DNA from: a virus | Lineage: Duplodnaviria; Heunggongvirae; Uroviricota; Caudoviricetes | IMG/VR virus record: IMGVR_UViG_3300002054_000021 | Coordinates: 141,864 to 205,863 of that record | Length of the DNA: 64,000 nucleotides | Strand: one strand, 5' to 3' | Shown: positions 44,786 to 63,641 of the stretch, piece by piece | Numbering within the stretch: position 1 is the first letter of the stretch | Layout of the letters: every line of letters begins with the position of its first letter | Made by a program: the position numbers and the translations under genes | The notes under the pieces: generated by a model | Databases searched by the model: none | What the model saw: the letters and a program-made list of their open reading frames with translations, nothing else | What the model was told of the DNA's origin: nothing

Positions 44786-45574
44786 TTATTGCATCTTGTA
44801 TTTTATGATTTCAAAAGCATCCTCATATGTCTCATCATCATTTTCCGAGGTAAGATGACTTGACATCATTTCACTTACACTGAAGGGTATGGGTTTAGAG
44901 ACAATTTTAGATCTCACGATATTATCTTCTATAGTATACATCTCCTTGTAAGAGGCAACCCCATAAAAGTACATATCTTCTATAGCGTCATGTATACTTT
45001 CAACATCAAGTTCTGAAATTATCATTGACCTCTTTTCTTCATCTTTGACACCTTGAAGAGATTTGTGCCCAAATATACCATGAGCCTTAGAGCTTACAGC
45101 GTTTTTCATAGCATCATTCTGTCTCCAAACAAGCTTATTATATAACTCTATTAGATTTGGTACTTGACAAACTCTAGTATCAAAGTGAGGGACCTTAGAC
45201 CCTCCCTTCTCAGATATATCATTTATTTTTCTGGAAAAATTTGATGAAGCAGATCCAGCTAAAACGGTTGCCATTTTCATAACTCTACCACCAAACATAA
45301 AATTTTCTATAGGTTTACCATTTTTCCAAAATAGAGATATCTCATCTGATTGAGTAAATGCAAAGTCGGCGTGTGTTTTTTCAACCAAGTACTCTGCAGT
45401 GCTTATCATAGAATTAGAAATATCTTTATCAAATGGCTTATCAAATGATTTGGTATAACTAGAGAACTTCCTGCCATCTACACGAGCGTAAACAGGCAAG
45501 AAGTTCATCAGTTTAATATTATTAATAGATTCGTATGATTTCATACGATCACCTAAATTATCTTGAGTCATCAT
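44786..45574 (-). CDS. thg1: tRNA-His guanylyltransferase-like 3'-5' polymerase (Thg1/TLP)
   Basis: LGDRMKSYE, ARVDGRKFS, FTQSDEIS, FDTR, WRQNDA. Confidence 0.95.
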   Translation of the reverse strand: MMTQDNLGDRMKSYESINNIKLMNFLPVYARVDGRKFSSYTKSFDKPFDKDISNSMISTAEYLVEKTHADFAFTQSDEISLFWKNGKPIENFMFGGRVMKMATVLAGSASSNFSRKINDISEKGGSKVPHFDTRVCQVPNLIELYNKLVWRQNDAMKNAVSSKAHGIFGHKSLQGVKDEEKRSMIISELDVESIHDAIEDMYFYGVASYKEMYTIEDNIVRSKIVSKPIPFSVSEMMSSHLTSENDDETYEDAFEIIKYKMQ

Positions 45575-45585
45575 GTATCCTCAGA

Positions 45586-46800
45586 TTAACCTTTTACATT
45601 AACCACCTGCTTCAAGGTATGCATTACTTCTATTAAATCAGACTGAGCCGCAATAACTGCATCTATATTTTTATATGCAGATGGACTTTCATCAAGGATG
45701 GCCTTATCCTTTCTGCACTCAATCCCTTCAGTGGCAGCTATATGTTCCTCAATAGATATCTTCTTTTTAGCCTCGGTTCTAGACATTACTCTACCAGCTC
45801 CATGTGAGCATGAGCAGAAAGAGTCTGGATTTCCAAGCCCCCTAACAATTAAACTTTTAGCTCCCATAGAGGCAGGTATAATTCCTAAGTCGTCTTTCCG
45901 AGCACGAACAGCGCCTTTGCGAGTAACGTACACGTCCTCTCCAAAGTGATTTTCCATTTCAGCGTAATTATGATGACAATTGACGGCAACTTTACCTAGT
46001 TTAAATGGCCTCAAATGCTTCCTCAAAACCCTGAGTACGCTATCCATCATAACATTCCTGTTTTCACGAGCGTAATTCTGAGACCACTGCATAGCTTCCC
46101 AGTAATCATTAAAAGACCCTGAGCCTTCAACAAGATATGCTAAGTCTGCGTCAGGCAAGTTAATGAAATGTCTCTCCATTTCTTTCTTAGCCTGCTTGAT
46201 GAATGTTTGTCCTATCATATTGCCAATACCTCTAGACCCGCTATGAAGCATGACCCAAACGATATTATTTTCATCTAAGCATACTTCAATAAAGTGATTT
46301 CCTCCGCCTAAAGATCCAAGTTGCTTTGAAGCATCTTTTTTTGCAAGGTGTGGAAACTTGTCTTTTATCTTAGCAAGACCAGCATCTAAAGATGCGTACT
46401 TCGTTAGGACGGAATTTGGAACTACGTCCCAAGAACCCTTAACAGACCTCCCTCTTACAGTAACAAATCCATGAGGAACAGCCCTCTCTATGTCTGACCT
46501 GATCTCCTTTAGTGAATCTGGCAAGTCGTCAGCTGTAAGAGTTGTTTGCACGGCATGCATACCGCAACCAAGGTCAACGCCAACAGCGGCTGGTATAATG
46601 GCCTTTTTTGTGGCTATTACAGAACCAACCGTAGACCCTCTACCAAAGTGACCATCTGGCATGACCGCGATGTGCTTGTGTATAAATGGCAAGCTTGCTG
46701 TCTTATGCAGTTGCGCATACGTGTTTTCATCAAAATGAACACCTTTATCCCAAGCTTTAACAGGAAAGGAGCCTTCTTCTTTGTAATACGTATATGTCAT
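45586..46800 (-). CDS. rtcB: RtcB RNA ligase
   Basis: MPDGH, GVDLGCG, GGGNHFIE, HSGSRG, HHNY, RKGA, HGAGR, DESPSAYK. Confidence 0.98.
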   Translation of the reverse strand: MTYTYYKEEGSFPVKAWDKGVHFDENTYAQLHKTASLPFIHKHIAVMPDGHFGRGSTVGSVIATKKAIIPAAVGVDLGCGMHAVQTTLTADDLPDSLKEIRSDIERAVPHGFVTVRGRSVKGSWDVVPNSVLTKYASLDAGLAKIKDKFPHLAKKDASKQLGSLGGGNHFIEVCLDENNIVWVMLHSGSRGIGNMIGQTFIKQAKKEMERHFINLPDADLAYLVEGSGSFNDYWEAMQWSQNYARENRNVMMDSVLRVLRKHLRPFKLGKVAVNCHHNYAEMENHFGEDVYVTRKGAVRARKDDLGIIPASMGAKSLIVRGLGNPDSFCSCSHGAGRVMSRTEAKKKISIEEHIAATEGIECRKDKAILDESPSAYKNIDAVIAAQSDLIEVMHTLKQVVNVKG

Positions 46801-46803
46801 TGC

Positions 46804-47007
46804 TCAATCCTTTCTTATTTCATCTAAATAATTTAGAGCTTTTATTGCTCTTTCACATTCTCTTAACCTAGAGTTTTCTCTAGATAAGTAATTAATTCTC
46901 TCTTTAACCTTGCTAATAATATTAGATGCAAGCGGTATTTTCTGAAGATAAGCTTCAGCTTGCATTGCAGTTAACATACTTATAAGTTCTTCGTCAGACA
47001 TATTCAT
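46804..47007 (-). CDS. hypothetical protein
   Basis: ORF track. Confidence 0.55.
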   Translation of the reverse strand: MNMSDEELISMLTAMQAEAYLQKIPLASNIISKVKERINYLSRENSRLRECERAIKALNYLDEIRKD

Positions 47008-47016
47008 ATTTTATAT

Positions 47017-47697
47017 TTATATATAATCGTCGTCAAGTCTTATTTTAGTTTTTTCTATATCCAGTAAAGTTAAATGACCTTTACTTTTGTGAGCGCCAGT
47101 ATCTACAAAGAGTACGTTGCCGACCACGACGACATTAATTCTTGGCGTATGTCCGCAAAAAACTTTTCCTATATTCTTTATAAACTTTTCCTTCCTTTCA
47201 TTGTTTATAACAGATCGACCCCAAAGCATGAAGTCCTCATTATGTCTTGCAGTGACATTATTCCAGTCTCTAGGAGGATCTGTGTGACATATTCCTATAG
47301 AATCCTCTCCATCACCTATAGTTATAGAGTAAGGCAGTCTACGAGCCATTTCAGCAGCCTTATTAAGCCTATCCTCAGGAGCTGATAGAGACCACTCGCC
47401 GCCATTAGAAAGCCACACGTTTCTGTACTCCTTATCTCTGCCTATAATGCTCTTAACTAACATATCTTCATGGTTTCCCTTCACAGCAAAAAACCAATCT
47501 TGATATATTAATTCAAGACAACTTAAGGAGTGAGGACCTCTGTCGATTAAGTCTCCGACAGAAAATATCCTATCCTTTTCTTTATCGAACTGAACAGAGT
47601 TCATGCATTCAAATAATTGCGCAATTTCACCATGAATATCTCCACACACAAAATCTCTGCCTTTTTGATTGAATTCAAATTTATCATTCCTTAACAT
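47017..47697 (-). CDS. metallophosphoesterase (PphA/NinI-like)
   Basis: GDIHG, GDLIDRG, GNHE, GHT, DTG. Confidence 0.95.
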   Translation of the reverse strand: MLRNDKFEFNQKGRDFVCGDIHGEIAQLFECMNSVQFDKEKDRIFSVGDLIDRGPHSLSCLELIYQDWFFAVKGNHEDMLVKSIIGRDKEYRNVWLSNGGEWSLSAPEDRLNKAAEMARRLPYSITIGDGEDSIGICHTDPPRDWNNVTARHNEDFMLWGRSVINNERKEKFIKNIGKVFCGHTPRINVVVVGNVLFVDTGAHKSKGHLTLLDIEKTKIRLDDDYI

Positions 47698-47792
47698 TTT
47701 CTTGACTTTTCCTTAATTTGTGATATATTATAACAATACTGATCGCGGAATTGGCGTTCCCATCAGCACTAAACCTTATAGGAGGATCAGCA

Positions 47793-48530
47793 ATGAAAAT
47801 TAATAAAACTATAGTATACAAAACCACTAACCTTGTCAATGGTAAATACTATATTGGCACACACAGGTGCGGAAAACAACCTTATTGCAAGTCTGGAAGA
47901 TGTAGGTATTTAGGTTCTGGAATATTGCTTCAGGATGCCGTAAAAAAATACGGCAGAGATAAATTTATAAGAGAAACTCTCTTTGAGTTCGATTTTTATG
48001 AGGACGCGATAACTAAAGAAGAAGAATTAGTTACAAGGGAATTAATAATTGATAACGATTGCTACAATATACATTTAGGTGGAGGATATAATGAGGGCTA
48101 CGATAAAGATAAATTAGAATTGTTTAGGAATAACTCCTTAGGCGAAAACAACCCTATGTTTGGTAAAAGGCATTCCCAAAAAACAAAAGATTTAATTAGT
48201 AGAATTATGACAGATATGAATAAGGATAAAAATTATACCCATCCATCAAAAGGAAAGAGAAGAGGAGATTTGTCTGAGAGAAACAGAATTCCTACAAAAT
48301 TTATGAATAATGGAATTATTCAAAAGAAGATTAGAATAGAAGATATTGCCTATATGGAGACTTGTGGTTTTTCTCTAGGAATGCTTGATAGTAAGAGTAA
48401 AAAAGGAAAGCCTTTTGAAAAAGTTAAGTGTGAATATTGCGGAATAGAAAAACCAAAGAATTCTATTTGGCGACATAAAATTAAATGTGAAAAAGGGCCA
48501 CCGAAGCAGCCCTTTATAACAAGAATTTAA
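47793..48530 (+). mobile_element. GIY-YIG (Seg-like) homing endonuclease with NUMOD3
   Basis: IVYKTTNLVNGKYYIG, YLGSG, YN...GG, NPMFGKRHSQKTK; ATG 47793 after GGAGG. Confidence 0.9.
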
Positions 48531-48537
48531 ATTAACT

Positions 48538-50031
48538 TTAAGCTGAAATTACAGAGTACCTTTCAGAGTTAATCACATCTTCCATCATTTCTAAAGGAGT
48601 CTTTTGAACAACCTTAGAGATCACTTTTTCAACAACCTCTCCATCTTCAATTACTTGCTCAACAGTTTCCTCTATACGAGTGTCATTGAATACCGTTGAC
48701 ATTAATCTAGTGCTAAATCCACCGACAAGAGTTGCTTTTCTGTCGCCTGCATCAGCATGTGAGACAGAATCGCTTCCAGCATTGAGATTCCAGAAAATAA
48801 CCCTAGGCATTTCATATCCTGCGTTTTGATATCTAGTTGACATCATATTCATGAATGACTGGTCGGGATTACTTGCACATCTATCGAACTGCATATCAGA
48901 GAATATAACAACTTTTGTTGGCATATCTTCTGCAGGAACCGAACCATCTAAAGCTGTCTGTAAGATTAACTTAAAGACGGCTTCAATATCAGTATTCATT
49001 CCGACGCGAGAGTTTCTCATCAGTGAAGCAGACTCTGTAAAGGTTCTATCACCAATATCGATTAACTGAGGATCTCGATTAAATGAAATAAAGTGATTTT
49101 TAAAAGCTCCTTTAAGTCTCTGAGATAGATACACACCCATAGATATAGCTACGTCCATAGGAGTAATTATTCCAGATATTGTGGTCCAAGTCATAGATGC
49201 AGACGTATCAACAACAGAGATAACATTTTCATCCTTAGCCACAACGTCATTTGGAAGAGCCTTCCACATGGCGTTAATCATATTATCCTTGACTTTTCCA
49301 GACTTTTGCATGCGCATTACATCATGAGGGAATAAGTCCTTACCATTCATCTCATTATCTAAAACATACTTACCAAATCTATCTTCGTCATTTCTTGAGA
49401 AAGCAGCTGTATATCTAGACATGGCCACAGAAGGAACTTTACTGTAGTCAATATCTGACCATTCTGCGTCACACATTTTAGTTTCAACAACTTTTGATGA
49501 CTTAGCAAGAAGCTTCCTAAAGCTCTTAGGATCTAACTTTAGAGCCTTTCTAATTTTGTGGGCATAAGATCTATGCTTCCCAGATAATCTAGGGCACCAC
49601 TTTGCAGCAAGCGCGTTACCTTCTTTTAGCGCGGTTGCATAAAAATATATAGCGTCCGCCTCAAGAGGAGTATTAAATAAAGACAGCACATCATCCCATC
49701 TACCATACTCTGGTATATGCTGGATTAAATGAGCTGGAAATTTACCATTCTGAGCAGCGAGGTTCATTATGCCTTGGAAAGAGTTTCTCTCACCAGAACC
49801 TTTTCTAATATCTCTCAACCAAAACAGTATGCGTAAGGCATCAGTTGGATTGCTGTCATATGCCGAAACAAAGCTCTGATACTTACCAGACTTAAATCCA
49901 GTCTTTCTTTGAGAAGGAACCTTATAGAAAAAATCCAACCTAGTGTCAGTAGTTGACACAGACGCAGGCATGCCGTTTTGTGTGACGGTTTGATTTTCTT
50001 TAGCCTTCATAGCTTTTACTAGTGCATTCAT
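48538..50031 (-). CDS. TROVE/Ro60-related protein with vWA domain (DUF2828-type)
   Basis: RDIRKGSGER, EYGRWDD, AAKWCPR, VPSVAM, VDTSASM (MIDAS), SDMQFD, IFWNL. Confidence 0.85.
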   Translation of the reverse strand: MNALVKAMKAKENQTVTQNGMPASVSTTDTRLDFFYKVPSQRKTGFKSGKYQSFVSAYDSNPTDALRILFWLRDIRKGSGERNSFQGIMNLAAQNGKFPAHLIQHIPEYGRWDDVLSLFNTPLEADAIYFYATALKEGNALAAKWCPRLSGKHRSYAHKIRKALKLDPKSFRKLLAKSSKVVETKMCDAEWSDIDYSKVPSVAMSRYTAAFSRNDEDRFGKYVLDNEMNGKDLFPHDVMRMQKSGKVKDNMINAMWKALPNDVVAKDENVISVVDTSASMTWTTISGIITPMDVAISMGVYLSQRLKGAFKNHFISFNRDPQLIDIGDRTFTESASLMRNSRVGMNTDIEAVFKLILQTALDGSVPAEDMPTKVVIFSDMQFDRCASNPDQSFMNMMSTRYQNAGYEMPRVIFWNLNAGSDSVSHADAGDRKATLVGGFSTRLMSTVFNDTRIEETVEQVIEDGEVVEKVISKVVQKTPLEMMEDVINSERYSVISA

Positions 50032-50060
50032 AACTCTCTCCTTATTGATGTTATTTTAAA

Positions 50061-50187
50061 TACAGATTGAATTTTAATTTCGTAGTCTGATTTGTAGTCA
50101 GATGCCTAACCATTTGGCTTATCTCCCTATTGGGAAATATCGGATTCGAACCGATAATCACTTAATGTGAATTGCTGAAATCAATCT
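50061..50187 (-). ncRNA. array unit 5 (promoter-distal): circularly permuted tRNA-like RNA opened at the variable region
   Basis: AGATTGA-TTTCAGCAA / hairpin / T arm ATCGG-TTCGAAT-CCGAT / acceptor ATTTCCC-AATA-GGGAGAT / D arm / arm TCTGA-CTACAAA-TCAGA / TCAATCT-GTA. Confidence 0.8.
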
Positions 50188-50219
50188 TTAATTTATAATA
50201 ATATTTCATATAAATATAT

Positions 50220-50349
50220 TACAGTATCTGTTTTAGTTTCTAGCGCTCTACCACTGAGCTAACTCCCCGTAGAATGTTGGGGAGTGTCGGATTCGAACCA
50301 ACGACCTCTCGTTTCATAGACGAACGAAATAATTTGCTGAAAAGATACT
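50220..50349 (-). ncRNA. array unit 4: circularly permuted tRNA-like RNA opened at 26/27
   Basis: AGTATCT-TTTCAGCAA; arm TTCGT-CTATGAA-ACGAG; T arm GTTGG-TTCGAAT-CCGAC; ACTCCCC-10nt-GGGGAGT; D arm GCTC/GAGC; AGATACT-GTA. Confidence 0.85.
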
Positions 50350-50372
50350 TCAAATTTATTCATAATTTTAAA

Positions 50373-50502
50373 TACAGCTTCTGTTTTAATTTCTAAGCGC
50401 TCTACCACTAAGCTATCCCCGCATATTATTGGAGCGGGGAGCAGGAATCGAACCTGCGTCTCTTCCGTGACATGGAATGAAATAATTTGCTGAAAAGAAG
50501 CT
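50373..50502 (-). ncRNA. array unit 3: circularly permuted tRNA-like RNA, Gly-like acceptor with encoded CCA
   Basis: AGCTTCT-TTTCAGCAA; TTCC-ATGTCAC-GGAA; GCAGG-TTCGATT-CCTGC; TCCCCGC-T-CCA-ATAATAT-GCGGGGA; D arm; AGAAGCT-GTA. Confidence 0.85.
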
Positions 50503-50530
50503 TTAATTCAATAACAATAATTCCTTTTTT

Positions 50531-50626
50531 TGTAGGCTCAACGTTAATTTTAAACTCAGGGTTTGAACCTGACTTTTCGAGTATTGATCGAAAATTTAAC
50601 CATTTTGGTTTTGCTGAAATGAACCT
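50531..50626 (-). ncRNA. array unit 2: tRNA-like D/anticodon/T arms with the acceptor replaced by the array stem
   Basis: AGGTTCA-TTTCAGCAA; AACC/GGTT; TTTTCGA-TCAATAC-TCGAAAA; TCAGG-TTCAAAC-CCTGA; TGAGCCT. Confidence 0.7.
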
Positions 50627-50647
50627 TCTTAATAATATTTAAAGAGA

Positions 50648-50709
50648 TACAGTAAGAGGTTTAATCTTTTTTTACAAACAAAAATTAGATAATTTGCTGA
50701 ATTCTTACT
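50648..50709 (-). ncRNA. array unit 1 (promoter-proximal): minimal unit without tRNA body
   Basis: AGTAAGA-ATTCAGCAAATT-hairpin-TCTTACT-GTA. Confidence 0.7.
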
Positions 50710-50729
50710 TTAATCTCAAATTCTGAATA

Positions 50730-50758
50730 ACAATAGCAAAATTTGAAGCTTATGTCAA
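50730..50758 (-). promoter_or_regulatory. promoter for the RNA array and TROVE gene
   Basis: TTGACA-17-TATTGT with extended -10 TG. Confidence 0.7.
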
Positions 50759-50776
50759 CATGTTTTTTTAAAAAAA

Positions 50777-51379
50777 TTACTTTATTGCGTCTTTTCTGTC
50801 CTCATCAGAGAAAGTTAAATCAGAAACAGACCCTGTAGATGCATATGCTAAAGTTTTAGCTCCCCTTGACCTCATGACATCCTTATAATTACCTTTACTC
50901 ATATTTAGTGTCTGATTTACATTTATGCCAACGCTGTTACTAGTTTCGAAGGCGTTAAAATCAGCACCTATAAAAGAGACCCCATAGTTACTTTTCTCAA
51001 AACCAGATATTATAGCCTTTGCCGACGCATTATTATATTCTTTACTATTATTCTCGCCACCATCAGTTATAATTATTATATCTGCAGACTTTCTTTTTTT
51101 CTTATTGACTAAATCACCTAAAAAGCCGATTGCGTCATATAGAGGTGTCATCGCTCTTGGTCTGAACTCATCACAAGATATAGATTTCCACTCTGAAGCT
51201 TTTACCTTTCGCCTAACTATGTCAATAGATTGACTATCGAACACAACGGTGGTAATTTTCATCTTATGAGGTTTTTTACCCTTTGAAAGCTCATCAACGT
51301 ATGCGTTTACAGAGCCTATTGTTTCATCCCATCTGGTTCCCATAGATCCAGATCTATCTATAAGTATATAGCAGTGCAT
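50777..51379 (-). CDS. vWA domain protein
   Basis: LIDRSGSM, TPLYDAIG, IITDGGENNS, FIGA. Confidence 0.92.
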   Translation of the reverse strand: MHCYILIDRSGSMGTRWDETIGSVNAYVDELSKGKKPHKMKITTVVFDSQSIDIVRRKVKASEWKSISCDEFRPRAMTPLYDAIGFLGDLVNKKKRKSADIIIITDGGENNSKEYNNASAKAIISGFEKSNYGVSFIGADFNAFETSNSVGINVNQTLNMSKGNYKDVMRSRGAKTLAYASTGSVSDLTFSDEDRKDAIK

Positions 51380-51400
51380 TATATATTCCCCTTAATATTT

Positions 51401-51496
51401 TGGTGTGGACAGAAAAGCCGCCTATTCTCTTTTCTACACGCGAGTATTCAATTCGCTGCTCTTTCTAGTTGCCTAAAGACTATGAGCTACATCCAC
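51401..51496 (-). tRNA. non-canonical tRNA-like RNA, anticodon GAA (Phe-like), expanded D and T loops
   Basis: GTGGATG/TGTCCAC-A-CCA; GCTC/GAGC with 22-nt loop; GCGAA-TTGAATA-CTCGC; GAAAAG/CTTTTC arm without TTC. Confidence 0.7.
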
Positions 51497-51505
51497 GTAA
51501 AACTT

Positions 51506-51589
51506 TGGTGTGAAGTGGGGGCCGACTACGCCTCCCGACACGCGAGTATTCAATTCGCTGCTCTTTAATAGTCACTGAGCTAACTTCAC
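51506..51589 (-). tRNA. non-canonical tRNA-like RNA, anticodon GAA (Phe-like)
   Basis: GTGAAGT/ACTTCAC-A-CCA; 13-nt D loop; same 29-nt anticodon region as its neighbour; 10-nt T loop without TTC. Confidence 0.7.
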
Positions 51590-51679
51590 ATAAAAACAAA
51601 TTAATTTAACTACAAAGTAGCTCCCTTAACTTGACTTATTAATGACACATTAAAATACATAAGTCAACAACTTTATTCA

Positions 51680-52393
51680 TTATTTTTCAAAAAAATATGA
51701 ATTAATCTCTAAAAGTCTATCTAAGCCTATGGCTATTTCATAAACCTTCATATCTTCGGAAAAATCTGTTCTTATAGAGCAGGACGCGACTTCCATCCAC
51801 TTACCGTTAAACATTAGCTCTATATCCTTAGTGCTCTCTGCGTATGACGGCGGCTTTGAGTCCTGTATCCTAACCTCTGAATTTGATAGTGAAGATAACA
51901 GATCTGCGATTTTATTTATTGTCATGTCGCGATAATCTGCCATTGTTGTTTCAGAGTATATACATTGAAATTCTAACTGATAAAACTCATTAAATCTAAG
52001 CTTTGAAGGAGAGGCTCCGTCAAGCACCTCTCTTCTAAAAGACTTGCCCGATTGCCACACACAAATAGGAGGAGAAAACCTCTTTCCTTTTCGCATCAAA
52101 TTACGAGCATATTGATAACTGGCAGGAGTTGTCTCAGCTCTTAAAACTGCTTCGCATTCGCCATAATTATGGTTGGTCACAAAAACATCATTGTCAGTAT
52201 AATTTTCTGAAATGTAAGACCTAGGTATTAAAATTGGTCCTTCCACTCTGTGAAATGAAAACCCCCTATTTGCACTAAGTAAAAGCTCCTTAACCTCAAG
52301 ACTTATCTGCGAGATAAAATTGTCTCGTAAATTCACCTCTCTCTCATTCCAGAATCTCAAAGATCCAGTTTCACTATATAGCGCTTCGCTCAT
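51680..52393 (-). CDS. minimal class II aminoacyl-tRNA synthetase catalytic core (GlyRS-alpha2/ProRS-like), no anticodon-binding domain
   Basis: LRAET, motif 2 GKSFRRE...EFYQLEFQ, WMEVASCSIR, motif 3 IGLDRL. Confidence 0.8.
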   Translation of the reverse strand: MSEALYSETGSLRFWNEREVNLRDNFISQISLEVKELLLSANRGFSFHRVEGPILIPRSYISENYTDNDVFVTNHNYGECEAVLRAETTPASYQYARNLMRKGKRFSPPICVWQSGKSFRREVLDGASPSKLRFNEFYQLEFQCIYSETTMADYRDMTINKIADLLSSLSNSEVRIQDSKPPSYAESTKDIELMFNGKWMEVASCSIRTDFSEDMKVYEIAIGLDRLLEINSYFFEK

Positions 52394-52410
52394 TTTAATA
52401 CTTTCTTTAT

Positions 52411-52914
52411 TTAGACCTTAGTTAGATTTGATCTTCTCATTTTATTCTTAACAATATGATCACTTGAGTGACTTGCAGCAAAAGCATATGGCTTTACCTT
52501 AGGCGCAAACCCCATTTGCCCAGTAACATAACCTATAGCCTCTTTAACTGCAACACTAGATGCATGCTTGTCGTCGCCGTTAATATCAACATGGACCTCA
52601 AAGTTTCTATCTCCAACATGATCTATTAAAGCAAGGGCAACCTCAGTCACCATGAAAACTTCATTCATGAGTCTTTGCTTTATATTGCCATAATCATCAA
52701 TAACTCTCTTTTCAATAAAAATTATAGAAGCCCCATGCTTAGAATCTTTGTGAAGCCAAACAGATGTAGAGTACTTAGCCTCTTTCCAAACTCTTCCAGA
52801 TTTTTTATCCTTTCTTGAGAATACCTGACTATCACACCCAACATAAACGCTAGACGATTCAGAAGATTCTTTTATAGCTTTTATAGCTTTATCGTATTTT
52901 TTATCATCAGTCAT
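52411..52914 (-). CDS. RNase H-like YkuK-family protein
   Basis: VYVGCDSQ, RLMNEV, EVHVDIN, KPYAFAAS..SD. Confidence 0.85.
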   Translation of the reverse strand: MTDDKKYDKAIKAIKESSESSSVYVGCDSQVFSRKDKKSGRVWKEAKYSTSVWLHKDSKHGASIIFIEKRVIDDYGNIKQRLMNEVFMVTEVALALIDHVGDRNFEVHVDINGDDKHASSVAVKEAIGYVTGQMGFAPKVKPYAFAASHSSDHIVKNKMRRSNLTKV

Positions 52915-53230
52915 AATTAATCATCCCGAAAAGATGAACTCTAAAATTAAAAGGAATAGGTATATAGCTCCAACTATAATAATTGATGCTATTGAGGTAG
53001 ACTTTATATAGTCTATCTCATCCTTACATTCCCCATACAATTTGTCAAATGCTTTATTTATTATTTTCATAATTTAAAAATTTTTGCGGTAGGTCGGCTA
53101 TCTCCTACATTTCTCGATCTTTCATTTCTTACTAAAACTCAACCACTCGACCCCCTACAAAATGAATGGTGCGTGAGACCTTACTCACTTCGCAAAAACC
53201 CAGCCTTAGGCTGTACCCCTAACTTTATTT

Positions 53231-54160
53231 TTAAATATGAGAATCCCCTTCCCACCCTATATCCATTCTGAATCCGCTTGCATTTTTATGTCCGCCTCCG
53301 CCATAAGATGATGCTATCCTAGATACATCTGCCCCACCTTTTAGTGACCTTAGAGAGAATACTCTAGACCTAGAGGTATCGTAGTAACAGGCTGCAAACT
53401 CTGGCATAATCATATCGCCTACTACGGGCGAGTGAAACTCTTGACTTGCCATTATATTTCCAGCGTCAGAAGCCATAGTGTAAGGGATGTTTGCAACAGG
53501 AACGACATGTCCTCCTATCACCATAGGTCTTTTGCATTGTTTTATAAGTTCAGATATATCCTTATCCATTTTCTTATTTATCGCCATGCCAAAAGCAAAA
53601 CATTTCTCAGTATTTTCGTTTATTGAATTATTTAACTTATCCCAGTTATTGAAGTTATAATCATGAGAAAATATCAAAGAAGCAATCTCTCTTGATCCTT
53701 CAATTTCAAATTTCCACAAATCTCTATCTTCAACGAAATCTACTATTTTGGGCCTTTCTTCTTCTGGAAAACAAAAATCCCAAGCCATTCCTGCGCCACT
53801 TCTACTCATGTCAAACAATGTCATTCCAGAGTTGCTCTCGCCACAAGCTAGATAGTCATTTATATTAAAGTTAGCGTTAATTATATTTTGCAAGGAGCTT
53901 TCATTCAAGTCACTCTGAGCAGAAATATGATGGTCTATAACTATCAGACTATTTGCATCTGACGCCATATCTTCAAGAATTTTCCTTTTGTACGAGAAAT
54001 CAAGTATAAAAACATTCTTCCCTTTCACAGAAGGGGGTATAGACCCATGAGTGGCGGCATAGTATTCTATTCCATCTTCACCGAATTTTTGTTTAAAAAC
54101 CCAAGCTGAGGTAAATCCGTCAGCACAGTTTCCGTGATATATAACAATATCTGGTCTCAA
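53231..54160 (-). CDS. DHH/DHHA1 phosphoesterase (nanoRNase-like)
   Basis: YHGNCADG, LDF, IDHH, DRDLW, FSLRS, GGGGH. Confidence 0.9.
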   Translation of the reverse strand: MRPDIVIYHGNCADGFTSAWVFKQKFGEDGIEYYAATHGSIPPSVKGKNVFILDFSYKRKILEDMASDANSLIVIDHHISAQSDLNESSLQNIINANFNINDYLACGESNSGMTLFDMSRSGAGMAWDFCFPEEERPKIVDFVEDRDLWKFEIEGSREIASLIFSHDYNFNNWDKLNNSINENTEKCFAFGMAINKKMDKDISELIKQCKRPMVIGGHVVPVANIPYTMASDAGNIMASQEFHSPVVGDMIMPEFAACYYDTSRSRVFSLRSLKGGADVSRIASSYGGGGHKNASGFRMDIGWEGDSHI

Positions 54161-54235
54161 AATTAATCCCCTACAAATAAAATATAATTTTTATATATAG
54201 GAAAATTATTCACATGTCAAGAATTTTATTCAACT

Positions 54236-54380
54236 GTAGTGTTTTTAATTTCACTCACACTACCACCACAACCATTAACGGGAAGGAATATTTCATCCTT
54301 CCCGCAATTAGGTATTAAGGAAATAACCTTGCAACATTCACACTGATGTAAAACGTTGTGCTTTCCAGATAAAAATACCT
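54236..54380 (-). ncRNA. candidate structured intergenic RNA
   Basis: AGGTAT/ATACCT junction, CAACGT/ATGTTG, AAGG/CCTT, GCGGGAAGGA/TCCTTCCCGT, GTAGTGT/ACACTAC; G-U pairs fit the minus strand. Confidence 0.45.
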
Positions 54381-54398
54381 GCCAGCTATGATCCATCT

Positions 54399-54926
54399 TT
54401 AAGTCTCTCTCCAGTTTTTAAACTCCTGAGCATAATTAGGGGCATATTTTTTTGCCATTTGCTCAACTCTTTCCCAGTTTGGATTGGTTTTAGGGTTAGA
54501 CTCTATACTTGAATAAGCAGTTCCTTTTGAAAAACCGTAAGCCAAGTGAGTGGATCTAGCCTCTCCTCTTAGTCCAGACTTGTCTCTCCTGTGGGTGTTT
54601 ATTGAAGCAAGTTGTGATGATATCTTATTAATTCTAGCGTCAATTTCATCTCTGTAATCTTCGGAGTTAGGAAGTGAATCTATATGATTCAACCTCTCCT
54701 TGAGAATGTCTATTCTAGACGACAGAACTCCTTCACCATCACCACTAGATGAAACTTTGGACTTTAACCTATCAATAGAATTTTGAAGCTTCTGTTTTTC
54801 AGCATCTCTATCTGAGTTCAGCAAATAAAGCCTTGTTAATTGCTTCTTTAACTGGCGCTCTCTTCCTCTTATAATTCCACTCTCTGCGGCGAGGTGCATG
54901 CTTTTTATTTTTAACTCTATAGTCAT
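54399..54926 (-). CDS. conserved phage hypothetical protein
   Basis: LKIKSMHLAAES...EARSTHLAYGF. Confidence 0.7.
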   Translation of the reverse strand: MTIELKIKSMHLAAESGIIRGRERQLKKQLTRLYLLNSDRDAEKQKLQNSIDRLKSKVSSSGDGEGVLSSRIDILKERLNHIDSLPNSEDYRDEIDARINKISSQLASINTHRRDKSGLRGEARSTHLAYGFSKGTAYSSIESNPKTNPNWERVEQMAKKYAPNYAQEFKNWRET

Positions 54927-55002
54927 TTAATCAATTCCTTCTTTAACTATTTTATAATATTACTCTACTCTTACACAAGAGCCTAGAAAAGTCCAGAATA
55001 AA

Positions 55003-55185
55003 TGGTGGAGATCTAGCACGTTCAGAACATTTTTTTATCCTCAGTTTATACGACGGAATTATTTCGAGACGATCCGCCGACGTCATGCCCTTTAAATCAG
55101 GGACCTAAATTGCCGTGTCACTTTTTCGCAGTTATTCAGCACTATGCGTTACTAATATTTATAGTCAGATAGCAATGACTTAAAC
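55003..55185 (-). ncRNA. tmRNA-like fragment (3' acceptor end, pseudoknots, resume-codon context)
   Basis: Ends GATCTCC-A-CCA; two H-type pseudoknots foldable by eye; AATAACT-GCG-AAA-AAG-TGA; own promoter TTGACA-17-TAAGTT; no contiguous 5' GGGG end. Confidence 0.4.
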
Positions 55186-55232
55186 ATAACTTAATACAAT
55201 TATATGCATTTGTCAAGAAAAAAGTAAAATAA

Positions 55233-55646
55233 TTAATAAAGCTTCATGTGTCCAGTAATCTTATCTATGTCTTTTGACTTGTGAGGGCCTATCGCTATAC
55301 AAGTGTATGTTGGAACGCCGCCGAATTCTGTTTTACCAGAATCTTGTATTAATGCAACTCTAAGGTTGGAATCTTTTGCTTTCGAGTATATGTCAAGTAG
55401 TATATCTTCACTTTCAGCTTTTAGGCATACTTTAGTAAAGCTACCATTTAACCAATCCTCTATATCATCTGATATATTCGGAGTTAAGAGCGACCTAGAC
55501 CTTCCAGACATAGACAAAAACTCATATTCCTGTTTCTCTGGGTTTAAAAGAGCCGCCATACTTGCGTGTGCAGACTGAGCCGCAATTTTACCCTTCCTCA
55601 TTCCAAGATCAGAACGCATAACTATTACTTGTTTAACGTCGCTCAT
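55233..55646 (-). CDS. pth2: peptidyl-tRNA hydrolase type 2
   Basis: KQVIVMRSDLGMRKGKIAAQSAHAS, KVCL, IQDSGKTEF, TCIAIGP. Confidence 0.95.
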   Translation of the reverse strand: MSDVKQVIVMRSDLGMRKGKIAAQSAHASMAALLNPEKQEYEFLSMSGRSRSLLTPNISDDIEDWLNGSFTKVCLKAESEDILLDIYSKAKDSNLRVALIQDSGKTEFGGVPTYTCIAIGPHKSKDIDKITGHMKLY

Positions 55647-55831
55647 TTTTTATACTTCCTATATTCTTTAGATATTTTATCTCCAGCAGATTTGTATAAT
55701 TGCACTGCTTCATCAAAAGTAGACTTTGATGCCTGAGTAAAAGTTTGCCCTTCTGACATTTTGTCAGAAACCACAAGTGTGGCCACAACTACTTTAATTA
55801 CCCCAATACAAAACGCCGTATTAACAATCAC
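55643..55831 (-). CDS. small hypothetical protein
   Basis: Coupled ORF. Confidence 0.5.
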   Translation of the reverse strand: MIVNTAFCIGVIKVVVATLVVSDKMSEGQTFTQASKSTFDEAVQLYKSAGDKISKEYRKYKK

Positions 55832-56000
55832 AATCAGTCTCCATATCCATCATTTTCATAAAGATCATTCCACCCGCATGAACCACAAAACCAGCTAGAT
55901 TCCTCTCTAAGGCAATCGTAAATTGATTTTATAGGCATATTACATATTGGGCATTTATCTTCATTCATTTAAATAATGATGGCACATTAAACAAGTTATG

Positions 56001-56381
56001 TCAAGTCTTTTTAGATCTTTTCTTGACCTCGTTTGATATTTGCCGAGAGGAAGATGACATCCAATCTTTATATTCATCCATACTTTCCTGATATTCAGTT
56101 AGCCTTTTGCTAAAACTTTCTTCAGATTCATGCAATTCAAGTATTACAAAGTAAGATATATGATCATTACTTTTCCTATGATTAAGTTCTAATGGGTCAA
56201 ATACTTCATTGGAAAACATGAACCCCTTCAACTCATTAGACATTGTGGATTTAGCTATTTCCACAGATAAAGACCTAAGCATATCGACGGAAGGGCACTT
56301 ATTTAGTTGCTCTTTACTTATGTGAACTATTATTGACTTATACTCCAATACTGGAACAATTGGCATTTCATTTAATCTCAT
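56001..56381 (-). CDS. hypothetical protein
   Basis: Coupled ORF. Confidence 0.6.
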   Translation of the reverse strand: MRLNEMPIVPVLEYKSIIVHISKEQLNKCPSVDMLRSLSVEIAKSTMSNELKGFMFSNEVFDPLELNHRKSNDHISYFVILELHESEESFSKRLTEYQESMDEYKDWMSSSSRQISNEVKKRSKKT

Positions 56382-57241
56382 ATTTCCCCCAATGAGTTTA
56401 TCTTTCCTTTAATTTTATCTATATCTTCAAAATTTCTTAGCAAATTCAAAACAAAGCTAGCCTCCTTGTCACACCTCCTGTGCTCAGAGGTAGAATTTCT
56501 TCTTACCCATTTTAGTTTAAATTTTAAATCTGGAAATTTTAATTTTAAGTAATCTATAAATTTCTGGTCAGATAGTAAGCCCTTACAATCGCAATTACAA
56601 AGTATGTCCCTAAAGCCCATATTGTAAGCTTCAGATATACCTTTTTTCAATGCATACTCTTCAGCCTTATAGCTTGTATCAATTAGTTCTGGACAAATAC
56701 CGTGCTGCCTTACAACACCTTTTCTGTCATCAATTGAATACGACCAACCTCCCATCATCATGCTATCGCAAAATGATGCATCTGAAGTAACCTTTGCGAT
56801 AGATTGAGAGTTTGACAGTTTAGTCCTGTTGGGCTTTTTTCTCAATCCGTGTATTCTATCATGCATACTCTTAATTTTTTTTACGGCTGCAATTCTTTTT
56901 TTTGATTTAGGCTGTGGTTCTATATTGAAAAACCTTAAGTTAACTTTAGTTCCAGAGAAAAAGTATGGGCCTTTGTATTTTTTCATGAAAGCGTCAAACT
57001 TATCAGACTGAAACCAAACATTTGCCGAATCTATTCTCATGGAAAAGCAAGTTTCAAGAACTATTTCTAAACTCTCCATAAAGGCTGACACCTCATCCTG
57101 CGCACTTCTATTATGGTAGCCACAGAACACAACCTCCCTATTTCCAACTTTTATCAAGAATGAATACTTAGATAAAGCATTTTTAGATCTAGATGTTATG
57201 GAAAACAAATATATGTTTGCATTTTTTTCTATGCTTGGCAT
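56378..57241 (-). CDS. RNase HI-like domain protein
   Basis: TSDASF, AEEYAL, NCDC, WVRR...CDKEA. Confidence 0.7.
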   Translation of the reverse strand: MPSIEKNANIYLFSITSRSKNALSKYSFLIKVGNREVVFCGYHNRSAQDEVSAFMESLEIVLETCFSMRIDSANVWFQSDKFDAFMKKYKGPYFFSGTKVNLRFFNIEPQPKSKKRIAAVKKIKSMHDRIHGLRKKPNRTKLSNSQSIAKVTSDASFCDSMMMGGWSYSIDDRKGVVRQHGICPELIDTSYKAEEYALKKGISEAYNMGFRDILCNCDCKGLLSDQKFIDYLKLKFPDLKFKLKWVRRNSTSEHRRCDKEASFVLNLLRNFEDIDKIKGKINSLGEI

Positions 57242-57247
57242 GACTTA

Positions 57248-57670
57248 TTAAGATCTATCCTCATCAAACAATTGGGATGCAATCCTCATATCTATACTTT
57301 GCCCAAAGTGAGATTTCATTAATGACATAGACTTGCCCTTGTCTAAACCATTACAACTCTTTCTTATAAATGCAGAAATATCTTCATTGGAGGTCATTTG
57401 AGGTAAATATTTTGATATGAATTCATTTTCAATTTTGAGAGATGTTACGATGTCTTCTCTGTCGGGAGCCGCTTCCATAGTTTTAGTATTGTTGGAGACA
57501 GCTTTTTTTAATATCAATAAGCACTCAGAATCAGAGGGCATCCTATCGCCATCATTCTTTCCTACCATTTCACATTCCGATATTAACATAGACATAAGCT
57601 TTGAAAGCCCATGTCTTTCTTTCCTCATTGAAATCAAATCACTTTTCATAACTTCTATCATATTCTTCAT
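57248..57670 (-). CDS. yqeY: GatB/YqeY domain protein
   Basis: DLISMRK, LISE...K, E...ISKYLPQ, GKSM. Confidence 0.85.
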   Translation of the reverse strand: MKNMIEVMKSDLISMRKERHGLSKLMSMLISECEMVGKNDGDRMPSDSECLLILKKAVSNNTKTMEAAPDREDIVTSLKIENEFISKYLPQMTSNEDISAFIRKSCNGLDKGKSMSLMKSHFGQSIDMRIASQLFDEDRS

Positions 57671-57677
57671 ATCGACA

Positions 57678-59009
57678 CTATAAGACCTTCCAGATGGTCT
57701 CAGCTCCTTTATCTTCTACAGATACACCTAACTTTGAAAGGTCTTCTCTAATTTTATCTGCCGCGTCCCAATCCTTAGCTAACTTCATTTTAACCCTTAA
57801 GTCAACCATGTCTTGAATTTTTTGCTCATCTACATCGCCCTTAAACCATACACTTGCATCACTTAAAAGCAAGCCGATAAGATTTAAGGATTGAATCATT
57901 TTTCCAAATAATGACATTTTTTCGTACTTGTGCACAACAGAAATAGCCTTAGGTACGTTAAAGTCATCAAATAACGCCTCTTTAAAATCAGATATATCAT
58001 TACCGACTATTTTAATATTTGGGAATTTTAATTTTTTATCATACCAGCGATCTAGATGGGATTTGCTTTTTGATAAAATATCATCAGACCATTCTATAGG
58101 CTTTTTATAGTGGGAGGATATTAAACCAAGCCTAACTACTTCACCACCCCACTCTTCTATAACATCTCTGGCAGAGGAAGAGTTTCCACTAGATTTGGCA
58201 ATCTTTCCTCCATCTATATTTACAAATTCATTGTGAATCCAGAAATTAGACAAAGGCTTATCGTGAGCGCATTGACTCTGAGCTATCTCGTTTTCATGAT
58301 GAGGGAACTTCAAATCAATACCACCACAATGTATATCAATAGTTTCTCCGAGAGTACTTTTTATCATTGATGAGCACTCAATATGCCATCCCATTCTACC
58401 ATATCCAAACGGGCTATTCCAGCCAACGTCAGTACCTTTAGATGGCTTCCACAGCACAAAATCTTCTTTTGATCTTTTCATCCTAAATACAGAAGGGTCT
58501 ATTCTTGATATCCGATCCTCTGTTTTTACGTGCTTAGAGAACATTAAATCATTAGGGTTGCTTTCCACATCGAAAAATACGTGACCATTAGACTCATACG
58601 CATGACCCTTCTCTATCAACAATGATATCATTTCTATCATTTGCTGAACATAATCTGTAGCTTTGGGTGATTTATTTGGATTTAGACAATTTAATGAAAG
58701 GACATCTTCTTCATATATTTTTCTGTACTTTTCAGAGATCTCAAATATAGACACGCCTTCATTATCAGCGGCAGTAATTATTTTATCATCTATATCGGTG
58801 ATATTTCTAGAGTACACAACACTATCTTCACCATACTTAATTAAGAGAACTCTATAAACTATATCAGAAGAAACAGCCGCCCTCATGTTGCCTATGTGAG
58901 CATAACTATAGACAGTAGGTCCACAAGAATACATTGTCACCCTATTATCATCTATAGGTACAAATTGAGTTTTTATTCCAGTTGCAGAATTTCTTATTTT
59001 TATGGTCAT
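57678..59009 (-). CDS. cysS: cysteinyl-tRNA synthetase
   Basis: CGPTVY...HIGN, DFVLWK, GWHIECS, DIHCGGIDLKFPHHENEIAQ, KIAKS. Confidence 0.97.
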   Translation of the reverse strand: MTIKIRNSATGIKTQFVPIDDNRVTMYSCGPTVYSYAHIGNMRAAVSSDIVYRVLLIKYGEDSVVYSRNITDIDDKIITAADNEGVSIFEISEKYRKIYEEDVLSLNCLNPNKSPKATDYVQQMIEMISLLIEKGHAYESNGHVFFDVESNPNDLMFSKHVKTEDRISRIDPSVFRMKRSKEDFVLWKPSKGTDVGWNSPFGYGRMGWHIECSSMIKSTLGETIDIHCGGIDLKFPHHENEIAQSQCAHDKPLSNFWIHNEFVNIDGGKIAKSSGNSSSARDVIEEWGGEVVRLGLISSHYKKPIEWSDDILSKSKSHLDRWYDKKLKFPNIKIVGNDISDFKEALFDDFNVPKAISVVHKYEKMSLFGKMIQSLNLIGLLLSDASVWFKGDVDEQKIQDMVDLRVKMKLAKDWDAADKIREDLSKLGVSVEDKGAETIWKVL

Positions 59010-59057
59010 TGTTTAGTAGTATATTGAATGACGACCAAAATCAAGCTTTATATGATA

Positions 59058-59789: not shown

Positions 59790-59850
59790 TTTGGTTACCT
59801 AATACTTATTAATCTAACCATATTAACATGAAAAATAAAAAAGTCAATAC

Positions 59851-60891
59851 TTACCGCATTTCACAATCCATTGATCTTGAGATCGTATGTACGCATTTAT
59901 CATGCATTAAATTAACATCATTGTGAGTTAAAGATTGATCCATAGACCTATATGTTACTCTATAACAATTTGACTTCCTGTCATTTTTTTCAAAACTATC
60001 TATCAGCAAAACGCTTTCAACCATATCTCCAGCGCATTCCCTGAATATTTCATTCATAGAGTTCTCGCAAAAAGAATCGCCTATCCACATACTTACATCT
60101 TTGTGGCATGGTGGGTACTTTGAGAAAGGCTTAAAATCAAATATACTTCCATCGAATTGGTCATGGAATCTTTTATCTTCACTCCACATTAACCTGATGT
60201 CTGGAATTTTAAACAATATCATAGCAAGCCTATCTATTCCCATTCCGAATGCCCAAGCTTTCTGTCCTGCGAGACCGCAATTATTCATTATTTTTTCATG
60301 AACAACACCGCAACCGAGAACTTCAAGCCAATCATTGTTATAAAATACATCTACCTCCCAAGATGGCTGCGTGAATGGGAATTTGTGCTCCCTCATTCTA
60401 AACTCACAATCGCCAAACAGTGAGTTTATAACACCTTCTAGATTAACTCTCAAATCATCTGCAACATCTACTTCGTCATCAACAATCTTGACACCCTCTA
60501 TTTGATGAAAAACTGGATAATGGCAAGAATCTATTTCATCACGCCTAAAGCAATCTCCTGCAACTAAGAAGGATTTATAGCCAGCCATCAATAGATCGTT
60601 CTGGTGTGCGCTTGTGTGCGTTCTTAAAACCGTCACCTCATCCTTATAATAAGTATCACTAAGAGATCTTGATACATGATCATCAGGGATTAGTAATTTA
60701 TCAAAATTATTACTTGTTGATACGAAAGGAGATATATCGTCAAATTTATTAAAGTCAGGGAAGCAAGAGAATATTTTTTCTTTTACGGTATTTATAGGAT
60801 GATTTAAAGTATTGTGTAAATTTTTTCCTATCTTTAATTCTACATGCTCTGGGATATTCATAACTATTTCCAATTCTATTTTATTCGTCAA
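59851..60891 (-). CDS. pheS: monomeric (mitochondrial-type) phenylalanyl-tRNA synthetase with C-terminal FDX-ACB domain
   Basis: SRSLSDTYY, LRTHTSAHQ, FRRDEIDSCHYPVFHQIEG, AFGMGIDRLAM, IPDIR, KYPPCHKDVS...SNCYRVTYRSMDQSLT. Confidence 0.92.
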   Translation of the reverse strand: MTNKIELEIVMNIPEHVELKIGKNLHNTLNHPINTVKEKIFSCFPDFNKFDDISPFVSTSNNFDKLLIPDDHVSRSLSDTYYKDEVTVLRTHTSAHQNDLLMAGYKSFLVAGDCFRRDEIDSCHYPVFHQIEGVKIVDDEVDVADDLRVNLEGVINSLFGDCEFRMREHKFPFTQPSWEVDVFYNNDWLEVLGCGVVHEKIMNNCGLAGQKAWAFGMGIDRLAMILFKIPDIRLMWSEDKRFHDQFDGSIFDFKPFSKYPPCHKDVSMWIGDSFCENSMNEIFRECAGDMVESVLLIDSFEKNDRKSNCYRVTYRSMDQSLTHNDVNLMHDKCVHTISRSMDCEMR

Positions 60892-60940
60892 TAATGTATA
60901 ATATAAATCATAAAATTATGTCAACATATTTGTAAGAAAT

Positions 60941-61567: not shown

Positions 61568-61586
61568 TTAATCTGTCCTTTAAAAA

Positions 61587-62279: not shown

Positions 62280-62382
62280 TCCAGATATTCCGCATGTAGC
62301 ATTAAAGCTTCCCGTGATAAATCCTTACAGTTAAAGAAATCTGTTTTAAGGAAATAATTTTTAATGTCAATGGTTGATTTTG

Positions 62383-62457
62383 TGGAGCCAGCAGAGATAC
62401 TTGAAATCTCAACCCATCCTTACGAAAGACGTATGTTTCCTCTTACACTATACTGGC
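62383..62457 (-). tRNA. tRNA-Thr(CGT), atypical
   Basis: GCCAGTA/TGCTGGC-T-CCA; loop TT-CGT-AA; T53-A61 pair. Confidence 0.75.
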
Positions 62458-62463
62458 TTGATT

Positions 62464-62542
62464 TGGCACCGACTGAGGGACTCGAACCCCCGCAAAAACC
62501 CAGATTCGTAATCTGGTGCTCTTCCTTCTGAGCTAAGTCGGC
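62464..62542 (-). tRNA. tRNA-Arg(ACG)
   Basis: GCCGACT/AGTCGGT-G-CCA; CCAGA-TT-ACG-AA-TCTGG; TTCGAGT. Confidence 0.9.
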
Positions 62543-62549
62543 ATAAAAT

Positions 62550-62623
62550 TGGTAGTCCTGAAGAGAATTGAACTCATGTCTTTCCGTTATCAGCGGAATG
62601 CTCTACCATTGAGCTACAGGACC
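62550..62623 (-). tRNA. tRNA-Ile(GAT)
   Basis: GGTCCTG/CAGGACT-A-CCA; TTCCG-CT-GAT-AA-CGGAA. Confidence 0.92.
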
Positions 62624-62631
62624 ATTTTTTG

Positions 62632-62705
62632 TGGTGGCGCTAAAGAGAATCGAACTCTTATCTTCTCTTGATGAGAGAGTTGCTCTTCCATTGAGCTATA
62701 GCGCT
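62632..62705 (-). tRNA. tRNA with CAT anticodon (Met or Ile2), atypical
   Basis: AGCGCTA/TAGCGCC-A-CCA (1:72 mismatch); loop CT-CAT-CA. Confidence 0.8.
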
Positions 62706-62713
62706 ATATAATT

Positions 62714-63178
62714 TCATTCCTTATTTTTATAAATCGATAATACATTATTAGAGATATCTATATAATCTAAATTTGACACACTTGCAGAACATGATCTTGA
62801 ACAGTATGTAGCTTTATTATTAGGCTTTGAAAGATGAGTCTGCCTTTTCTGTCTTTTAAATTCCTTTTTGCAGAAAGGGCATTGAAGAGACACTATAGTT
62901 TTAGGAGGGGCAGACTTGTAATTATTCTCTAATACAGTAAGAATTTGCAAGTTATCTATCCTATCGTCTGATTTAATATCATTTATATGGTCTACATGTT
63001 CATGATCTTCTAAATATCTCCCCAAATGAACAGACATTAAATAACGAGCATAGCTTGTTGTGCTTAAATCATTATCGCTATTCCTTAAGTGTACATTATT
63101 TCTTCCTGTTGATTTATTGTGCAATAAATATCCCAACCTCCAGTCTTCGTTATAAGGATATTTTAACTCTATTTTCAT
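62714..63178 (-). mobile_element. HNH homing endonuclease inside the tRNA cluster
   Basis: SYARYLMSVHLGRYL...VDHINDIKSDDRIDNLQIL...N; CPFC...YCSRSC. Confidence 0.9.
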
Positions 63179-63212
63179 AAATAATACTTTGTATCTTCTC
63201 AGTTTAAATATT

Positions 63213-63287
63213 TGGTGCCCTAAATCGGAATCGAACCAATTTACCCGACTTACAAGATCGGTGCATCGCCAGCAATGCTTTTAGGGC
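63213..63287 (-). tRNA. tRNA-Thr(TGT)
   Basis: GCCCTAA/TTAGGGC-A-CCA; CCGAT-CT-TGT-AA-GTCGG. Confidence 0.92.
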
Positions 63288-63450
63288 AATCGCTGTGACA
63301 ACTAAAGATGTAATGAAATTTAATACAGATGTATTTACAAACGACAGAAGACCCTTGCTTGTCACAAAGATGTGAGGGCCTACATATAAAGGTAGACCCT
63401 AGATAGTAATTCGTGTCATTCGTGTCATAGTGTATTCTCTATGTTAATTT

Positions 63451-63526
63451 TGGTAGGTCTTACTGGAATCGAACCAGTGGCTTCCATCTTGTAAGGATGG
63501 CACTCTTCCTGCTGAGTTAAAGACCC
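63451..63526 (-). tRNA. tRNA-Val(TAC)
   Basis: GGGTCTT/AAGACCT-A-CCA; CCATC-CT-TAC-AA-GATGG. Confidence 0.92.
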
Positions 63527-63641
63527 TCAATTTCAATAAATATACCACAATAAAAACATAAGTCAACACTTATTTAAAAAAAACTTGATTTTTTTATTAA
63601 TTGTGATAATATAACTTTTTAGCTCAAGGGTTAACCGTAAA

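Follow-up and report, generated by a model that had tools for sequence, protein, structure and literature searches.

A large tailed phage encodes an organellar-type single-chain phenylalanyl-tRNA synthetase related to the mitochondrial enzyme

The window analysed here is a stretch of 64,000 nucleotides from one virus record of 208,360 bp, which is 93% complete according to CheckV. Terminase, portal, major capsid, tail sheath and baseplate genes identify the carrier as a tailed phage, and a sequence-only reading of the same DNA was correct in regarding the gene described below as phage-encoded. Positions 50000-64000 of the window are covered without differences by one 28.8-kb contig of flat depth, which possibly comes from the source sample and is thus not independent. 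On the minus strand an open frame of 346 codons (59851-60891) encodes a phenylalanyl-tRNA synthetase (PheRS). The earlier reading gave the protein 346 residues. The frame is indeed open over that length from a TTG at 60891, but the start is more likely to be the ATG at 60861, since the public gene call has 336 aa and the homologues start there. Residue numbers from H82 to R336 are counted from this ATG. A promoter scan gave 10 hits where 7.1 were expected, which is chance level. The features needed in the following are:

59851..60861, minus strand: single-chain PheRS gene, 336 aa from the likely ATG start
60154..60828, minus strand: class II (PheS-type) catalytic domain; the arginines of motifs 2 and 3 are intact, as is the phenylalanine pocket
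59854..60123, minus strand: FDX-ACB anticodon-binding domain, with D288, F290, S297 and R336 at the G34-reading positions
57678..59009, minus strand: CysRS, a synthetase neighbour in the same co-oriented cluster (TIGR00435, 408 bits, cutoff 340)
44786..57670, minus strand: downstream tRNA-repair and translation-rescue genes (Thg1, RtcB, stand-alone class II core, RNase H-like, DHH, Pth2, YqeY)
51506..51589, minus strand: tRNA-like RNA 1, candidate substrate; cloverleaf with GAA in the anticodon loop, G1-C72, A73 and encoded CCA
51401..51496, minus strand: tRNA-like RNA 2, candidate substrate; anticodon arm of RNA 1, G1-C72, A73 and CCA
62383..63526, minus strand: upstream tRNA cluster (Thr, Arg, Ile, Met, Thr, Val)
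G000:3146-3221, outside the window: canonical tRNA-Phe(GAA)

Pfam recognises tRNA-synt_2d (PF01409) at residues 22-246 of the 346-codon frame (E 3e-57) and a complete FDX-ACB domain (PF03147, model positions 1-94 of 94) at residues 257-346, the latter with E 2e-16 and 60.6 bits against a cutoff of 31.1. The class II motifs and the C-terminal FDX-ACB domain are thus joined in one chain, as had been read from the letters. The N-terminal coiled coil is absent, and so is the editing domain. The NCBIfam profile pheS_mito (TIGR00469) gives 320 bits, above its cutoff of 258.35, while the ordinary pheS profile (TIGR00468) gives 173 bits, below its cutoff of 237. The best sequence match in PDB is human mitochondrial PheRS (E 6e-87); E. 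coli PheS reaches only E 7e-37. An AlphaFold model (pLDDT 95.3) superposes on human FARS2 (3cmq) over both domains with a TM of 0.92. Residues H82, S84, Q87, R106, F118, Q120, E122, F161, F163, E180, A204 and R211 are the same as in PheS and the eukaryotic enzymes. D288, F290, S297 and R336 line up with D, Y, S and R, which are conserved in the C-termini of PheT, and correspond by pattern and spacing to Asp729, Tyr731, Ser742 and Arg780 of Thermus thermophilus, which read G34 (PMC9976931). With every testable family feature present, the protein is an organellar-type single-chain PheRS (PheRS-M), as first proposed. It is not an ordinary bacterial PheS alpha subunit, given the low pheS score, the missing coiled coil and B5 partner and the rejected grouping with alphaproteobacterial PheS/T (see below). 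Nor is it a member of the eukaryotic FARS2 clade in the narrow sense, as it branches outside that clade and has no targeting presequence.

The fusion of a PheS core to FDX-ACB is shared with the monomeric PheRS of mitochondria and plastids (human FARS2, PDB 3CMQ/3TUP; TIGR00469; PheRS-M of AARS Online, PMC11580382). Coiled coil and editing domain are absent in both, and the catalytic and anticodon residues are alike. Sampled eukaryotic organellar enzymes are 42-54% identical to the phage protein, which differs from them in its length of 336 aa, its tailed-phage origin, the lack of a presequence and its position outside their clade; it also lacks the insertion of about 33 residues that chordate enzymes carry after motif 2. 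The description of the architecture as organellar holds for the type, but not as an exclusive property, since by sequence it also appears in CPR bacteria, Bacteroidota, giant viruses and jumbo phages. The nucleocytovirus enzyme is likewise viral and alpha-only, and has been proposed to be monomeric (Kijima et al. 2024, PMC11304981); it is 44-48% identical to the phage PheRS. SrmL of Bacteroidota (NCBIfam NF051887, "PheS-related mystery ligase") has the same two domains in about 344 aa and 42-49% identity. In cells it accompanies pheS/pheT as an additional copy, whereas the phage protein scores 243.9 bits with the SrmL profile, under the curated cutoff of 300, and is not counted as a member. 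The single-chain PheRS of CPR (Patescibacteria) has the same fusion and replaces PheS/T. However, it is 380-455 aa long with an N-terminal extension, keeps an ancestral 19-residue spacer before motif 3, has W and Y at two pocket positions and is only 34-38% identical to the phage PheRS. The main text of a study of huge phages also proposes that phage synthetases charge phage tRNA variants (Al-Shayeb et al. 2020, PMC7162821). PheRS is absent from that main text, and the synthetases are described there as relatives of host enzymes, while the present PheRS is unrelated to host-type PheS.

No PheT B5 domain was found in the carrier genome (93% complete) or in nine related phage genomes; it was present in 14 of 14 control genomes. 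ARAGORN finds 29 tRNA genes in the carrier, tRNA-Phe(GAA) among them; many tRNAs are common in jumbo phages. Other translation and repair genes encode CysRS, GluRS, IleRS, a CCA-adding enzyme, RtcB, Thg1 and Pth2. The IleRS-type synthetase is split between two frames, which encode 290 and 640 aa and are 37 bases apart (L124:15947-18779, minus strand; same coordinates in G000). A skipping-rope RNA over the Rfam gathering score adjoins the tRNA array (L124:179-308, minus strand). At 7627-7703 (plus strand) of the window ARAGORN calls a tRNA-like gene whose anticodon is given as four bases (gatt), and there are overlapping tRNA and YrlA-like Rfam matches at 50063-50460 (minus strand), upstream of a 497-aa DUF2828/DUF7788 gene. 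The carrier also encodes GapR, which among the controls was found only in Caulobacter, and its DnaG scores highest with a Caulobacter phage, Methylobacterium and Sphingomonas. These two proteins make an alphaproteobacterial host probable, in line with the initial suggestion. CysRS is a weak host indicator, with Paracoccus (306 bits) followed by Fusobacterium (293 bits).

Recognition by the monomeric mitochondrial PheRS depends on G1-C72, A73, C74 and the anticodon, with no contact at position 20, while E. coli PheRS uses U20 and U59 (PMC9976931). The coiled coil of the bacterial alpha subunit contacts the D-loop region (PMC8136816). The phage tRNA-Phe carries G1-C72, A73 and CCA, the mitochondrial-type identity set. 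It has A20 and, in the anticodon loop, G32/G37/U38, where Shinella, a stand-in from which the actual host may differ, has U20 and U32/A37/A38. A37 is the usual bacterial state in tRNA-Phe. As recognition by this kind of enzyme is confined to the acceptor end and the anticodon, the phage PheRS should charge its own tRNA-Phe. A tRNA-Phe(GAA) is encoded by 12 of 14 other carrier phages, a count that has no control set for comparison. Some carrier phages, namely L152 (G027:210484-210830), L149, L141 and L163, have 2-3 distinct tRNA-Phe(GAA) genes each, many of them with G37.

The two GAA look-alikes lie 8.3 kb downstream of the PheRS gene. Both fold as cloverleaves in which the D and T loops are non-canonical. 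RNA 1 receives no ARAGORN or Rfam call, and the fold of RNA 2 is no better than that of shuffled sequences (z -0.3). No other viral contig matches their anticodon arm exactly. Together with the phage tRNA-Phe they fit the identity rules of a single-chain PheRS, whereas those of the tetramer do not suit them. Directly upstream of both look-alikes is a stand-alone class II core of 237 aa (window 51680-52393, minus strand), with weak matches to GlyRS, PylRS and PheS and no anticodon domain. This core, and not PheRS, could be the partner of the look-alike RNAs.

From its architecture, residues, fold, phage context, tRNA features and family distribution, we infer that the protein is very probably an active PheRS that charges tRNA-Phe during infection without a beta subunit. 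Phe-AMP would be formed in the class II domain, while the GAA anticodon would be gripped by the enzyme's own FDX-ACB domain, and the tRNA would be charged by a presumed monomer without proofreading. The preferred substrate would be the phage's own tRNA-Phe, whose position 20 and anticodon loop are unlike those of the host type; the two elbow-altered GAA RNAs are perhaps also charged. The likely benefit is that the supply of Phe-tRNA is maintained when the host tRNA or synthetase is depleted, cut or attacked, and the neighbouring repair genes fit such a role. A ligase acting outside translation, which makes Phe-tRNA for another use or charges the look-alikes as decoys or donors and not for ribosomes, is conceivable in this clade because SrmL, of unexplained function, sits there beside pheS/pheT, nested in the same 22-row clade (96/94) as the phage PheRS. 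The two non-canonical GAA RNAs at 8.3 kb would suit such a function. However, the phage protein falls under the SrmL cutoff (244 against 300) and over that of pheS_mito, its Phe-pocket residues are all canonical and the carrier genome holds a canonical tRNA-Phe and several other synthetases, and this alternative is considered improbable.

The closest relatives of the phage PheRS are 53-69% identical and 334-345 aa long, and those that were traced lie on phage or phage-like contigs of up to 519 kb, beside tail sheath, RNA ligase, CCA or Thg1 genes. A single-sequence scan of IMG/VR found no relatives, while an alignment-based scan of the same database found 38 loci. Among 34 IMG/VR records examined, a terminase match was present in 11 (8 over cutoff) and nucleocytovirus capsids over cutoff in 2. 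Cultured phages in INPHARED gave no full-length match, only catalytic-domain matches at 28-37% identity. The sequences suggest that the single-chain PheRS is spread over many unrelated large phages as a widespread group. This group is apparently undescribed: in a literature covered mostly outside subscription journals, no published description was found of phage or CPR single-chain PheRS, and no relevant paper on SrmL. What was already known are organellar-type PheRS in giant viruses (PMC11304981) and phage synthetases in general (PMC7162821). Plasmid relatives were rejected, as the matches listed were ordinary pheS. One of the plasmids observed, Aminobacter pAA02, carries pheS without an adjoining pheT, surrounded by amidase and oxidoreductase genes (L121:3186-4253, plus strand).

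In cells, a GTDB scan with two short patterns returned Bacteroidota and CPR copies. The Bacteroidota copies pass the SrmL cutoff and coexist with pheS/pheT. In one CPR class the single-chain fusion is found in 29 of 151 genomes, and PheT B5 was detected in 1 of 28 carriers as against 18 of 20 non-carriers (Fisher p 5e-10, not corrected for relatedness). Since the carriers are nearly all without pheT, PheT is dispensable there; the single-chain form replaces the PheS/T tetramer, and a form related to the phage enzyme is enough in a bacterial cytoplasm. Taken together with the missing B5 domain in the phage, this agrees with the presumed independence from PheT. The single-chain form was not found in 400 sampled Pseudomonadota, nor in any of 401 genomes from the class of a GapR-bearing member, taken as Alphaproteobacteria, at thresholds that CPR or phage-type copies passed. 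GapR was found in none of 26 other large phages carrying the single-chain gene.

The careful trees rest on only 340 columns. Near-duplicate phage rows, archaeal PheS (a long branch) and long-branched eukaryotic representatives were left out, and so were L021, L049, L057 and L058, possibly misbinned rows that group inside the eukaryotes. A tree of 99 rows (LG+C20 PMSF) unites the single-chain forms in one clade (100/99) with CPR as the first branch (100/99); in it the eukaryotes are monophyletic (98/93) and the phage PheRS falls in a nine-row phage clade (98/98). A second tree has as outgroup bacterial PheS joined to the PheT C-terminus, and the 99-row tree agrees with it in shape, at lower support. 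Here CPR are deepest (100/98), and phages, eukaryotes, giant viruses and SrmL group together (100/99). The eukaryotes (99/95) lie inside two nodes (99/92 and 96/90) with phage lineages outside both, and the present phage PheRS belongs to another clade, the one of 22 rows that also contains giant viruses and SrmL. Support for the phages that are sisters of the eukaryotes is only 85/89 and 87/82. A FastTree run gave another root. In front of motif 3, PheS and CPR have a spacer of 19 residues, and that of phages, SrmL, giant viruses and eukaryotes is mostly 16-17 residues long; this indel agrees with a root that leaves CPR outside. Judged from these trees, phages appear among the nearest sampled relatives of mitochondrial PheRS, while the enzyme of the present carrier does not appear as the closest one in the best trees.

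Constrained topologies were compared by AU tests in IQ-TREE on 61-62 rows under LG and C20 models; as the constrained trees come from single LG+F+G4 searches, some of them shortened, rejections near p 0.01 are provisional. A grouping of eukaryotes with alphaproteobacterial PheS is rejected (p <= 5e-4), and so is that of the phage PheRS with alphaproteobacterial PheS/T (p 2.6e-5 and 3.3e-4). Eukaryotes with CPR (p 0.003-0.017) and eukaryotes with giant viruses (p 0.003-0.007) are also rejected. The latter is contrary to Kijima et al. 2024, who included no phages and derived the viral enzyme from organelles (PMC11304981); with phages added, giant viruses branch among phages, and the published grouping of mitochondrial and giant-virus PheRS is overturned in the present trees. 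Not rejected are eukaryotes with the phage PheRS (p 0.05-0.22), a single viral clade as sister to eukaryotes (p 0.32, 0.14, 0.25 and 0.08) and the phage PheRS as the deepest single-chain branch (p 0.06 and 0.13), which bears on the root and not on nesting in PheS.

The monomeric mitochondrial PheRS combines bacterial alpha and beta parts in a chimera for which no alphaproteobacterial precursor is known. The sequence-only reading held that such an enzyme in a phage with a probable alphaproteobacterial host bears on the origin of the mitochondrial one. The relevance stands, as the eukaryotic enzymes branch among phage lineages in the phylogeny it had called for. The host link is unsupported: GapR was found in none of the 26 other carriers and the form in none of the 401 alphaproteobacterial genomes, and the present PheRS groups with phages, giant viruses and SrmL in the best trees, although its sister position to eukaryotes is not rejected.

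The chances seem about even that a bacterial, CPR-like fusion passed to large phages and, before LECA, from these to the proto-mitochondrion or the stem of the eukaryotes, while giant viruses and Bacteroidota received it separately from the phage pool. The nested position of the eukaryotic clade with CPR deepest, the shortened spacer common to phages, SrmL, giant viruses and eukaryotes, and the rejection of alphaproteobacterial PheS, CPR and giant viruses as sisters of the eukaryotes all argue for such a phage donor. Against it are the surviving single viral clade (p 0.08-0.32), the modest support for the phage sisters, the few columns, the differing FastTree root and the labelling of several deep "phage" rows (P0066, P0092, P0246 and L046) by gene context only. 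The same unrejected viral clade suits a second reading, which is possible but on the doubtful side: an extinct or unsampled bacterium gave the enzyme separately to the eukaryotic stem and to large phages, and the phages are cousins, not donors. CPR bacteria show that the single-chain form is used in cells, but the maximum-likelihood trees favour nesting, and no cellular sister of the eukaryotes was found in GTDB (two short patterns), the 400 Pseudomonadota or the 401 alphaproteobacterial genomes. Capture of the gene for an organellar PheRS, with an alga or protist as its source, or a contig chimeric with eukaryotic DNA, is suggested by the best named matches, which are eukaryotic (49-54% identity), by the sample, an algae metagenome, and by the unrejected grouping of eukaryotes with the phage PheRS, but it is unlikely: the phage PheRS nests inside the eukaryotic clade in no tree, it has neither presequence nor intron, its closest relatives are in phage-like contexts and one flat-depth contig spans the locus, so that recent capture is largely refuted and only a pre-LECA timing is possible.

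A contribution of phages to mitochondrial replication and transcription, through RNA and DNA polymerases, has already been proposed (PMC4558845). A phage donor of PheRS would extend this contribution to translation, and a core component of mitochondrial translation would be phage-derived. As a tentative proposal, somewhat short of an even chance, the mitochondrial and plastid PheRS of all eukaryotes would come from a large-tailed-phage gene of CPR-like fusion origin, and the phage enzyme and its elbow-altered tRNA-Phe variants, unreadable for the host tetramer, would be a private pair. As sampled relatives, the phage and CPR forms make the origin of mitochondrial PheRS testable, and the interest lies more in this family than in the present copy, one of many, or in its host. 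For genetic-code engineering, an editing-free PheRS of 336 residues that comes with divergent tRNAs of its own is a candidate for a minimal enzyme.

Some further single-chain copies were observed. In Gracilibacteria and Peribacteria (TGA = Gly), single-chain PheRS of 453-455 aa occur besides ordinary pheS and pheT (L065, L066, L067 and L070, about 7750-9110). A Lapillicoccus chromosome assembly has a 600-aa single-chain PheRS among fungal-type enzymes (L058:7506-9308, plus strand), by contamination or transfer; L049, L057 and L021 also nest among eukaryotes. The deep-branching copy L046 (7989-9005, plus strand) lies on a 59-kb contig of a Nitrospiraceae bin, where ten neighbouring frames have no Pfam match, and this locus is probably a mobile element.
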